Shown piece after piece: positions 2,581 to 6,152 of a DNA stretch of 15,909 nucleotides. Position numbers and translations under genes: made by a program. The notes beneath the pieces were generated by a model. The model saw only the letters and a list, made by a program, of their open reading frames with translations. It was not told the DNA's origin and searched no databases. Location of the stretch: the UHGV virus genome UHGV-1808406; one strand, 5' to 3'. Source of the DNA: a virus. Within the stretch, counting starts at the first letter, position 1. The number at the start of each line of letters is the position of its first letter.

Positions 2581-2604
2581 CAACTTTGTGAAAAATTTTT
2601 GAAA

Positions 2605-2629
2605 TAAAAAAGGGAGCCCGAAGGCTCCC
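2605..2629 (-). terminator. Rho-independent terminator on the minus-strand transcript
   Basis: Perfect 7-bp GC-rich stem GGGAGCC/GGCTCCC with a CGAA (minus: UUCG) tetraloop, followed on the minus strand by a U-run (plus-strand taaaaaa). It lies 3 nt after the stop of the nucleotidyltransferase gene. Confidence 0.8.
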
Positions 2630-2631
2630 TA

Positions 2632-3645
2632 TCATTTATAATAACTTCGGTGGTTTTCAAGATAGACCTTCTCAAGGAAGTCATCCCAGAAACTCATGTC
2701 TACTTTTTGCTGCATACCGTTCTTAGAAGCTTCAGTAGATGCTGCTTCTACTTGATCGACCACATCTTCCAAAAACTCTTGAACCGTTTTAAATGGATGT
2801 TTACCCAACTTCACGTCGAGAATAAATGGAGCGTCTTGAAGTGGATAAATCAAGTCGCCAGTTTTGTAAATTTCCAATAGTTGAAGTCCACCACGACAAG
2901 CATGACTCAGAGCTTTCCAGTCAATACCTTCATTGGCTTCAGCCTTACGAGCACGTTCACCATATTCAGCATCTAATTTGTTCAGTGACTGCTTAAGCTC
3001 AATAAGAGAAAGCGTTGTCTGATATTTACGACCCAACACAGTGTAGAACGTTTGTGGGCCTGTTTTCTCATGATTATGGAACACCCATTCACAGAATTCG
3101 TTTTCTGGAAGACGATGCTTAATATCTTCAACTTTAGTGCGACGCTGCTTAATAGAACCATCTTCTTGGTAATCAACCCATTGCTCAGGGATTTGATTAA
3201 CTACTTTCAATACATCACGTAATGCAGCCAAACGAGAACCCTTGACACCGTATTTAGAAGCTTGCTTACGGACATATCCTAAATATGATTTCATGTTAGT
3301 CGTATAAAAACGAGAACGGTTGTCTTGAATAAACTTCCACACATCAGGCAAATCAGATTTAACCACTAGTTCAGGTGGAGTGTGAAGCATATCTAATGCT
3401 ACAGTTTCACCATCTGCTGCTAATTTAAAGAAATATTTAAGACTGTATAGTTCATGGTCAATATCATCTTTAGTGTTTTTAGATGATGTGTTGTTAGTGT
3501 TTTTACTCATGTGCTCTTTGACATTTCCGATAAGAATATCGCGAGCAGGAGGAACAAAGATTTCTTTAAAATCTACATCAGATTCTGGGGTAGAAGTTCC
3601 ATAAAGATGACTACCAAAATAGCTTTTCATTACTGTTTTCATCAT
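2632..3645 (-). CDS. Pol-beta-superfamily nucleotidyltransferase, 337 aa, substrate unknown
   Basis: N-terminal motif G11-S12-x10-D23-V-D25 (GSHLYGTSTPESDVDF) fits the hG[GS]x9-13Dh[DE] signature. A further acidic cluster DDIDHE at 60-65 is a candidate third carboxylate. The ATG overlaps the upstream stop as ATGA. Confidence 0.7.
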   Translation of the reverse strand: MMKTVMKSYFGSHLYGTSTPESDVDFKEIFVPPARDILIGNVKEHMSKNTNNTSSKNTKDDIDHELYSLKYFFKLAADGETVALDMLHTPPELVVKSDLPDVWKFIQDNRSRFYTTNMKSYLGYVRKQASKYGVKGSRLAALRDVLKVVNQIPEQWVDYQEDGSIKQRRTKVEDIKHRLPENEFCEWVFHNHEKTGPQTFYTVLGRKYQTTLSLIELKQSLNKLDAEYGERARKAEANEGIDWKALSHACRGGLQLLEIYKTGDLIYPLQDAPFILDVKLGKHPFKTVQEFLEDVVDQVEAASTEASKNGMQQKVDMSFWDDFLEKVYLENHRSYYK

Positions 3646-4115
3646 TCAGCCTTATATTCAATAACAGGACATACTTTAGCTTTACGAGCTTTTAAAAATT
3701 CAACGATAATCGATTTCTTGGGTTGAATAGGAGGTAAACCTTTATACGCCCTATCAATATTTTCTATGTGTAAAGCATAATCCTTTTTCCATTTATAATC
3801 TTTATATTTTTCATGCAAATGTGCAGGAATAACAAATGAACCAATAATAAGTAAAACAAGCAAAATGGCAAGTATAAATGCTGATGGAATAAGAGTCCAT
3901 AAACTACCAAAAATAAGCCATTTCTGTATGATTTCTGCGCAGATGATAGTTAGACCTGCGAGTATAGTACATCCGAAAAAAGAAACGAAAAATGTAGGGA
4001 TAACAATAGACCAAAAGTATGCACACAGTGTCTTAGGTCGTTTCCATTCGTCGTTAAACAGTTTGAATAATTTATAGTGCCAAGAGTTTTCATTAATAAC
4101 CATAATTATAATCAT
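3642..4115 (-). CDS. Small membrane protein, 157 aa, 2-3 predicted transmembrane helices
   Basis: Hydrophobic segments FWSIVIPTFFVSFFGCTILAGLTIICAEI and LWTLIPSAFILAILLVLLIIGSFVI. ATGA overlaps with both neighbouring genes indicate translational coupling. Confidence 0.6.
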   Translation of the reverse strand: MIIIMVINENSWHYKLFKLFNDEWKRPKTLCAYFWSIVIPTFFVSFFGCTILAGLTIICAEIIQKWLIFGSLWTLIPSAFILAILLVLLIIGSFVIPAHLHEKYKDYKWKKDYALHIENIDRAYKGLPPIQPKKSIIVEFLKARKAKVCPVIEYKAE

Positions 4116-4633
4116 CCTTTCATTGAAGGTGTAACGTATGTTAAATACTTAATCATAGCCTCAGCTTCTGATTTTGACAATGAAATTTCTTCACCGTTTT
4201 GGCGAATAGAAACAAAATCTGGATGACGGTCACCGCCAGCCTTTAAAACACACATGTAAGTATCAACTTCGCCTTCAATATTTGAAATGATTGAAGCAGT
4301 TCCACATGAATGTGGTTGTTGATAAACTAATACAGCTTTTCTTCCACCGTTTGACTGTTCATAAACTTTTAACACATCAAACAAATCACTTCTTTTATCA
4401 ATAGCTAAGATGTTGTTTTCATCTTCAATATTAAATCCTTCGGATACTTCATAAAGTGTCACCCATAAATCACCAATATCAATAACAGCGTTCACTTTTC
4501 CATGACTTTCAAGAGCATTACAAATTTTCTTAATTTCATCATAACTCATTTTAATAATATCATCTCCTTGAATAAGGAAGATGTCATTTTTAAATTCAAC
4601 ACGAATTAAACCACTTCCACTTGAAATAAACAT
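4112..4633 (-). CDS. Hypothetical protein, 173 aa, paralogous to the upstream gene
   Basis: Its C-terminus SIRQ...SKSEAEAMIKYLTYVTPSM aligns with TIRQ...TKDEAIALKTYLDSVIPTM of 4640-5197, and both contain GFNI. A GAGG Shine-Dalgarno overlaps the upstream stop. Confidence 0.6.
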   Translation of the reverse strand: MFISSGSGLIRVEFKNDIFLIQGDDIIKMSYDEIKKICNALESHGKVNAVIDIGDLWVTLYEVSEGFNIEDENNILAIDKRSDLFDVLKVYEQSNGGRKAVLVYQQPHSCGTASIISNIEGEVDTYMCVLKAGGDRHPDFVSIRQNGEEISLSKSEAEAMIKYLTYVTPSMKG

Positions 4634-4639
4634 ATTTCC

Positions 4640-5197
4640 TCACTTTGAAATCATAGTTGGAATGACAGAATCAAGATAAGTCTTTAGCGCAATAGCTTCG
4701 TCTTTGGTAAATGTGACAATATGTGATCGAAAATCGTCAATTTGGCGAATAGTTAAGACATCTCCATCTTCATAACATTTTGATACGTTTAAAACAGTTT
4801 CATCATTCTGACTGCAAGCGTTAGTAATAATAGCATTGCAATTTTTAAGCCATTTTAAACTATGTTTTCTTTCATTAGAATAATAAAAATATTTAATCTT
4901 ATCTATAAAACTATCCCAATGGATAACTGATAAACACATTGACTCACTTTTAATATTAAATCCTGGGCATGAAGAATAAAAATGAACTTTATTCTCATCA
5001 TTGATGCTTACAATTTTATCAGTATAAGAATTTTCAATTTGGGTTAAATGAATAATTTCGTTAGGCGTAAAATATAGCATATCGTCTTCTTGTGTCAAAC
5101 GATACATATTATTTACTTTTTCTATAGCCAATTCACCAAAAAGTGAACTAACTTCTAATACTAATCGTTTCATATTGATTCTCTTCGACTCACTCAC
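4640..5197 (-). CDS. Hypothetical protein, 185 aa, paralogous to 4112-4633
   Basis: Possible GTG start at 5197 with an AAGGAG Shine-Dalgarno 9 nt upstream, or ATG at 5173. Conserved C-terminal segment shared with the neighbouring gene. Confidence 0.55.
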   Translation of the reverse strand: MSESKRINMKRLVLEVSSLFGELAIEKVNNMYRLTQEDDMLYFTPNEIIHLTQIENSYTDKIVSINDENKVHFYSSCPGFNIKSESMCLSVIHWDSFIDKIKYFYYSNERKHSLKWLKNCNAIITNACSQNDETVLNVSKCYEDGDVLTIRQIDDFRSHIVTFTKDEAIALKTYLDSVIPTMISK

Positions 5198-5199
5198 AA

Positions 5200-5304
5200 T
5201 TACATACTCCTTTGAATAATATCAATAATGTTGTTCACCAGATTATAAGTAAACATTGGGTAATTATATTGAATCATCACATACACAACAAACAAAACTT
5301 TCAT
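5200..5304 (-). CDS. Possible micro-ORF, 34 aa hydrophobic leader peptide (MKVLFVVYVMIQYNYPMF...)
   Basis: An AAGGAGAAGAGA Shine-Dalgarno precedes the ATG at 5304. It is the first ORF after the promoter at 5333-5361, and its stop overlaps the Shine-Dalgarno of the next gene. Confidence 0.3.
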   Translation of the reverse strand: MKVLFVVYVMIQYNYPMFTYNLVNNIIDIIQRSM

Positions 5305-5332
5305 TCTCTTCTCCTTAACAGTTGACAAGATT

Positions 5333-5361
5333 ACTATAACATAACCTTGCCAACTTGTAAA
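5333..5361 (-). promoter_or_regulatory. T4-type early promoter: -35 TTTACA, 17-bp spacer, -10 TATAGT
   Basis: Minus strand reads tggTTTACAagttggcaaggttatgtTATAGTaatc. It heads the operon that runs from 5304 to the terminator at 2605-2629. Confidence 0.55.
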
Positions 5362-5364
5362 CCA

Positions 5365-5538
5365 TTAAATGGTGTTTTCAATAAAATTCTGAAGCTTTGT
5401 GTGAGCATCAACCATGATTTTCATTTCTTCCTTTGCGAAAGCTGTACCTCTTTCTCGAGCAGAATACTCATAGTCAGAAACTGCATTAGCATATTCTTCA
5501 ATTAGCTTCATTAAAAACATCTGCTTTTCAGTTTTCAT
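5365..5538 (-). CDS. Small ORF, 57 aa, absent from the 60-aa ORF track
   Basis: ATG at 5538 is preceded by an AGGTGGAA Shine-Dalgarno 3-4 nt after the upstream stop. Translation: MKTEKQMFLMKLIEEYANAVSDYEYSAREGTAFAKEEMKIMVDAHTKLQNFIENTI. Confidence 0.4.
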   Translation of the reverse strand: MKTEKQMFLMKLIEEYANAVSDYEYSARERGTAFAKEEMKIMVDAHTKLQNFIENTI

Positions 5539-6095: not shown

Positions 6096-6123
6096 GATGT
6101 TCTCCTCTTTATCCGATAGTTGT

Positions 6124-6152
6124 ATAGTATCACAGTTCAAATGGAAAGTAAA
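6124..6152 (-). promoter_or_regulatory. T4-type early promoter: -35 GTTTAC, 17-bp spacer, -10 TACTAT
   Basis: Minus strand reads ccgGTTTACtttccatttgaactgtgaTACTATacaactatcgg, directly downstream of the terminator at 6164-6185. Confidence 0.65.

Follow-up and report, generated by a model that had tools for sequence, protein, structure and literature searches.

Results

A tandem pair of MobD.1/y05I paralogs in an early-type operon

Two adjacent genes of the UHGV virus genome UHGV-1808406, which code for proteins of 185 aa and 173 aa (hereafter B and A), represent an old tandem duplication within the MobD.1/y05I family of phage T4. Judged from sequence comparisons, their paralogy spans the full length of both proteins, the C-terminal ~40 residues being simply the best conserved part. 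The reading that we favor, to which we assign a probability of roughly 0.45, is that each protein combines a constant assembly module, its third repeat, with a variable N-terminal binding domain, and that the pair would provide two specificities.

The window, that is, the whole stretch of 15,909 nucleotides analyzed here, carries every long ORF on the minus strand. Taking the T4 annotation as the reference, it corresponds to the nrdC.7–tk–regB region of a Tequatrovirus-type genome; positions 2600-5400 are 97% identical to Escherichia phage D5505 and match 753 phage records, nearly all of them from Tequatrovirus and its relatives. From its sequence, the early-type promoter-like site listed in Table 1 is the likely start of a transcription unit that comprises mobD.2, B, A, a gene for a small membrane protein, and nrdC.11, and that is closed by a terminator-like hairpin at the place where D5505 and phage e11/2 also have an annotated terminator. 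The genes are tightly spaced. The stop codon of mobD.2 (Pfam Phage_T4_Y05J in related loci, including locus L024) lies 2 nt from the start of B, whose GTG codon is found 9 nt downstream of AAGGAG; the TGA codon of B overlaps the Shine–Dalgarno sequence of A across a spacer of 6 nt; the stop codon of A overlaps the start of the membrane-protein gene (ATGA); and the membrane-protein stop and the nrdC.11 start overlap by 4 nt. We also observed that B and A share a reading frame and are separated only by TGA-GGA-AAT (4634-4642), a 6-nt spacing that is conserved in the related loci L002, L003, and L006-L008 as well; read-through of this TGA, if it occurs, would produce a fused six-repeat protein.

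Just past the operon terminator, NrdC.10 (1549-2583), a P-loop/AAA-type NTPase with weak matches to AAA_14, AAA_22, and nSTAND3, appears to be transcribed from an early-type promoter of its own. The TTG-start extensions of three minus-strand ORFs (~2541-2583, ~1085-1144, and ~6100-6140) all translate to '...GTIQLS...'. The source of this motif is a repeated promoter-like DNA element (GTTTACA, 17-nt spacer, TGGTACTATACAACTATC), read at the DNA level for the copy upstream of nrdC.10, and the true starts of the three genes are ATG codons further downstream.

Table 1. Features of the mobD.2–nrdC.11 transcription unit, with positions in the window
Feature	Position	Strand	Basis or remark
Early-type promoter-like site (T4)	5333..5362	-	GTTTACA, 17 nt spacer, TG-n-TATAGT; consensus scan and sequence; upstream of mobD.2
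mobD.2 homolog, 34 aa, hydrophobic	5200..5304	-	Sequence; T4 and D5505 annotation
Paralog B, 185 aa, ortholog of T4 MobD.1 (y05I)	4640..5197	-	
B, predicted repeats 1 and 2 (PUR-like N-domain), residues ~10-108	4874-5170	-	
B, C-module (predicted repeat 3), residues ~111-185	4643-4867	-	
Swappable N-terminal cassette of B, codons 1-141	4776..5198	-	blastn against phage e11/2 (L003)
Paralog A, 173 aa, ATG start	4112..4633	-	No T4 counterpart
A, N-domain, residues 1-97	4343-4633	-	
A, C-module, residues 98-173	4115-4342	-	
Small membrane protein, 157 aa	3642..4115	-	phrog_944, phrog_22816; hydropathy; cross-genus alignment; synteny
NrdC.11, RlaP-family (PF10127) Pol-beta nucleotidyltransferase	2632..3645	-	Pfam RlaP E 1.7e-11, phrog_388; T4 annotation
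Intrinsic-terminator-like hairpin	2611..2630	-	8-bp stem with 6 GC pairs, then T run

The paralogy extends over the whole length of both proteins

The initial annotation had described two tandem ORFs sharing a C-terminal block and an internal GFNI motif, with diverged N-terminal regions. Both ORFs were found with the quoted motifs: IRQ is present in the two proteins, TKDEAIALKTYLDSVIPTM pairs with SKSEAEAMIKYLTYVTPSM, and PGFNIKSE pairs with EGFNIEDE. The similarity is significant, since a full-length BLASTP comparison of B with A gave 29% identity over 176 columns (E 5e-10) and both proteins score above the Pfam gathering thresholds. The shared C-terminal block was recovered when the C-terminal halves were compared alone (35% identity over 37 aa, E 2.8e-5). 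As for the N-terminal regions, their identity is indeed lower (~24% for the N-domain, 37% for the last 40 residues), but they are still homologous, the N-terminal halves alone aligning with 26.5% identity over 98 aa (E 6.6e-7), with statistical support no weaker than for the C-terminal block; the proposed divergence thus stands as a lower identity and not as a loss of relationship. Against related phages, dN/dS values were 0.12-0.28 for B and A, which indicates purifying selection and, therefore, that both paralogs are real, functional genes.

Both proteins belong to a family that is already catalogued as two Pfam families and whose members are deposited as 'hypothetical protein' in hundreds of genomes. 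PF24449 (T4_y05I_N) was matched with 120 bits by A and 128.8 bits by B (gathering score 24.9; E-values 7e-35 and 1e-37), PF24448 (T4_y05I_C) with 79.6 and 75.9 bits (gathering score 27; E-values 2e-22 and 3e-21), and phrog_1502 was matched end to end by both. B is the ortholog of T4 MobD.1, with 83% identity and a location likewise between mobD.2 and nrdC.11, whereas A is a paralog of MobD.1 with 25% identity, sharing with it the two Pfam domains and the predicted fold. In T4, mobD, which codes for an HNH homing endonuclease, separates the single copy from nrdC.11; in contrast, the window has at the place of mobD the 173-aa gene and the 157-aa membrane-protein gene, both of which are missing from T4. 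About 430 GenBank phage records contain paralog A at an identity of at least 88%, which makes two copies the usual state in Tequatrovirus. A literature search by names and Pfam accessions found no functional study of MobD.1/y05I, and NCBIfam and PADLOC gave no meaningful match for the two paralogs, the membrane protein, NrdC.11, or NrdC.10. Several GenBank labels in this region are wrong: MobD.1 and mobD.4 homologs are named 'molybdopterin-guanine dinucleotide biosynthesis protein MobD', NrdC.10 and NrdC.11 'thioredoxin', and the y05I homolog of phage ESCO47 'thymidine kinase'.

The conserved C-module as a third repeat

AF2 models give each paralog three predicted PUR/Whirly-type repeats (beta-beta-beta-beta-alpha), with repeats 1 and 2 packing together into one closed PUR-like domain. 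The model of A, built from an 18-sequence alignment, showed an N-domain of beta4-alpha-beta4-alpha topology (pLDDT ~90) and a less confident C-domain; that of B, for which a deeper alignment including stand-alone C-modules was used, reached a pLDDT of 87, with 80-94 in the C-domain. Because the two proteins are members of the same two-domain family, are predicted to have the same fold, and lie next to each other in one operon, the earlier proposal of a tandem duplication followed by divergence is supported.

The idea that the conserved C-module is a third repeat, related in sequence to repeat 1, is supported by profile comparison. When repeat 1 (residues 1-45 of A) was aligned with the C-module using hhalign, the probability was 92% and the score 32.8, with both profiles in register (strand-strand(Q)-strand-helix). 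In 300 column-shuffled controls, the scores averaged about 8 (sd 1.7) and did not exceed 14.7, which places the observed score ~14 sd above them; a reversed control reached 7.7. Furthermore, in a Mosigvirus homolog the N-domain HMM also matches the C-module region and vice versa. With hhalign, repeat 2 showed no sequence similarity to either of the other two repeats. The last element of the C-module is a long helix that is highly conserved, (T/S)K.EA.AL..YL..V.P(T/S)M.

The best structural matches of the models were Pur-alpha, MRP1/2, Whirly, and PC4, all of which bind ssDNA or RNA, and a BFVD structure search returned family members only. No PUR model was present among the Pfam matches of the paralogs at E<=0.1, no PDB sequence was matched at E<=10 in single-sequence or profile searches, and neither a match to Whirly models nor the KGKAAL motif was found in either paralog; the relation to these proteins is thus one of predicted fold. 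With Pur-alpha (Drosophila 3k44, repeat III 5fgo/8chw; Borrelia 3n8b) the y05I proteins have no detectable sequence relationship; the paralogs are acidic whereas Pur-alpha is basic, and their repeat 3 is modeled with an extra strand. Similarly, Whirly/PBF-2 and the trypanosome MRP1/MRP2 proteins showed no sequence match, and the C-terminal helix-loop-helix through which Whirly forms tetramers was not predicted in the paralogs. Whirly and MRP proteins carry a charge opposite to that of the acidic y05I paralogs. SsgA/SsgB-like proteins and the DUF4176 type VII secretion chaperones use a Whirly-like fold for protein binding; however, they have no sequence relationship to the paralogs, come from another organismal context, and lack a third repeat. 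A literature search for Whirly proteins in phages gave nothing relevant.

Both paralogs are acidic, one with a pI of 4.7 and a net charge of -10 and the other with a pI of 5.6 and a net charge of -5. Distant members reach -19 to -22, so that the family ranges from -5 to -22, and its conserved residues are mostly acidic or hydrophobic.

Copy number, chimeras, and cassette exchange

Only 30 proteins were retrieved when 1.84 billion representatives were searched exhaustively by HMM. A few were full length, and many were stand-alone C-modules of 67-87 aa that keep the terminal helix motif. A 1572-aa match (P0070) was discarded as a repeat-rich, unrelated protein. T4 has the 185-aa type only, and the L024 lineage has the 173-aa type as its sole copy (P0010). 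In the L021-L023 lineage (6 contigs), the sole copy is an in-frame chimera (P0011) whose N-terminal part is of the MobD.1 type and whose C-terminal part is of the 173-aa type. Dhakavirus and Mosigvirus have one copy, and in other genera only the stand-alone C-module was found. In single-copy lineages (L021 2733-2999, L024 1282-1536), the y05I-family gene has an 84-88-aa 'Phage_tudor' (PF24144) gene directly upstream, which the window does not have. In Klebsiella phage 15882-6-3 (L025 2099-2504), the membrane-protein gene is immediately preceded by two adjacent single-repeat ORFs, of 63 aa and 74 aa; the former gives weak matches to both the repeat-1 and the C-module HMMs, and the latter is an unambiguous C-module (E 2e-16).

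A comparison with phage e11/2 (L003) revealed a DNA identity to the window of 95-97% on both flanks and none over the segment of B given in Table 1. At the corresponding place (L003 2825-3416), e11/2 has a MobD.1 allele that is ~48.6% identical at the protein level, together with an extra ORF of 61 aa. This pattern indicates that the N-terminal part of B is an exchangeable cassette. Of the two breakpoints, one coincides with the gap that separates the mobD.2 stop from the MobD.1 start, and the other is inside repeat 3. The last ~45 codons of MobD.1 are near-identical between these divergent alleles, and extreme purifying selection was rejected as the explanation; the abrupt return of DNA identity (94.6%) at window position 4775 points to an intragenic recombination breakpoint instead. 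The locus has therefore been frequently remodeled by duplication, chimera formation, cassette exchange, and homing-endonuclease insertion. The site of mobD itself differs among phages: in T4 (L001 14430-15209) it takes the place of A and the membrane-protein gene, in a Dhakavirus-like contig (L012 4487-5290) it lies between the membrane-protein gene and nrdC.11, and the window lacks it.

A conserved gene order with a small membrane protein and NrdC.11

To describe the neighborhood, we classified the ORFs of each locus with the N-domain and C-module HMMs and their neighbors with phmmer, and sampled further loci with the membrane protein as the query, which constitutes an independent route. The loci came from Tequatro-, Dhaka-, Mosig-, Teguna-, Jiaoda-, and Gelderlandvirus (6-7 named T4-like genera) and from IMG/VR and metagenomic sequences. 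In all 23 loci bearing the membrane-protein gene, a gene with a C-module, either within a three-repeat protein or as a stand-alone protein, was found directly upstream; NrdC.11 came next downstream, in some loci separated by a few inserted ORFs. All membrane-protein-bearing loci examined thus share one invariant gene order: C-module, membrane protein, RlaP.

The membrane protein has at least two hydrophobic segments, and it may start at either of two ATG codons, 4115 or 4103, the latter giving 153 aa. In the cross-genus alignment its ends are conserved, with NSWH...LC.YFW at the N-terminus and IKA+K.K.CP.IE at the C-terminus, while the hydrophobic core varies. The C-terminal tail is basic (+6, pI 9.7). 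The soluble ends contain invariant His and Cys positions (NSWH, LC.YFW, K.CP.IE), and the two termini together may form a small metal-binding or interaction unit.

NrdC.11 of T4 is listed among the RlaP enzymes, a family that extends damaged RNA by 1-2 nucleotides at the 3' end (PMC12776372; see also PMC7824862). The descriptions of RlaP RNA repair modules do not include the y05I proteins (PMC12776372, PMC7824862). In those modules RlaP adjoins an RNA ligase (RtcB, or Rnl with Pnkp), whereas searches of ORFs, Pfam, and PHROG matches revealed no RNA ligase gene in the mobD.2-B-A-membrane-nrdC.11 operon. The ligase genes of T4 are located elsewhere in its genome.

Discussion

The existence of single-copy lineages, the in-frame chimera, and the swapped N-terminal cassette favor a scheme in which a constant C-module is combined with variable binders. 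According to this proposal, the third repeat would be the constant assembly element of the family and would pair with another such repeat to form homo- or heterodimers, by analogy with the unpaired repeat III of Pur-alpha; such optional dimerization is plausible. A further possibility is that the C-module docks on the small membrane protein, at the conserved and basic cytoplasmic ends of the latter. Ligand binding would fall to the acidic N-terminal PUR-like domain, the variable and exchangeable part, so that the two paralogs could present two binding specificities on one common assembly module, and we infer that they may engage variable host targets. Expressed early together with NrdC.11, which would repair RNA ends, they would form a dispensable accessory set that probably acts in the conflict between phage and host. 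The suggestion that such duplications reflect either a heterodimer or two specificities of one scaffold thus fits in its second part, while an obligate heterodimer is unlikely given that single-copy relatives exist.

An alternative, which we regard as unlikely, is that the paralogs are acidic protein-binding decoys or inhibitors serving anti-defense or host takeover. The N-domain would then bind a host protein, or mimic nucleic acid for it, with different host variants as the targets of the two paralogs and the divergent alleles, and with the C-module as no more than a stabilizing core. The acidity of both proteins agrees with this idea, as do the early-type promoter upstream, the exchange of the N-terminal cassette between phages otherwise 95-97% identical, the repeated remodeling of the locus, and a fold that is common to protein-binding and immunity proteins. 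The region is also hyperplastic and dispensable; T4 survives deletion of the segment nrdC.11-mobD.3 (PMC9825161). Nevertheless, no known anti-defense or defense family was matched in PADLOC or NCBIfam, and the dN/dS values within allele classes (0.12-0.34) correspond to purifying and not to diversifying selection.

It is also doubtful that the paralogs are Pur-alpha/Whirly-like binders of single-stranded nucleic acids that present damaged tRNA/RNA or ssDNA to NrdC.11. This explanation would account for the fact that the best structural matches are all ssDNA/RNA-binding proteins, for the operon shared with NrdC.11 in all genera examined, and for the extension of damaged RNA 3' ends by 1-2 nucleotides that RlaP enzymes carry out (PMC12776372). 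However, a net charge between -5 and -22 throughout the family is evidence against it, and nucleic-acid binding is doubtful in such acidic proteins despite their fold and the Pfam label 'putative transcription factor'.

Another proposal, to which we give little credence, is a combinatorial PUR-repeat system in which single- and three-repeat proteins would form homo- and heterodimers through the C-module on the small membrane protein and the exchangeable acidic N-domains would capture different host factors or RNAs. Such a system might link the sensing or neutralization of a host defense at the membrane to RNA-end repair by NrdC.11; if true, no functional PUR-like repeat protein would have been described before in a bacterial virus. 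Least probable of all is an obligate B/A heterodimer, with neither copy functioning without the other: the two genes adjoin and appear translationally coupled (Shine–Dalgarno sequence overlapping the stop, 6-nt spacer), they occur together in about 430 Tequatrovirus records, and each protein is modeled with an unpaired third repeat, but T4 has B only, L024 has A only, the six contigs of L021-L023 have a single B/A chimera, Dhakavirus and Mosigvirus have one copy, and other genera have the stand-alone C-module only.

The MobD.1/y05I proteins belong to the 'dark matter' of T4: early, dispensable in the laboratory, and conserved across genera of the Straboviridae. The repeat analysis and the synteny rule provide useful leads and not a new type of system. 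The predicted three-repeat fold, the portable C-module, and the linkage with the membrane protein and RlaP lead to concrete hypotheses for this locus, namely dimerization, membrane docking, and a link to RNA repair or counter-defense. If the function is neither counter-defense nor RNA repair, B and A would be an ordinary pair of paralogous accessory genes; if it is counter-defense or the targeting of RNA repair, they would represent a new protein class in the biology of phage-host conflict.
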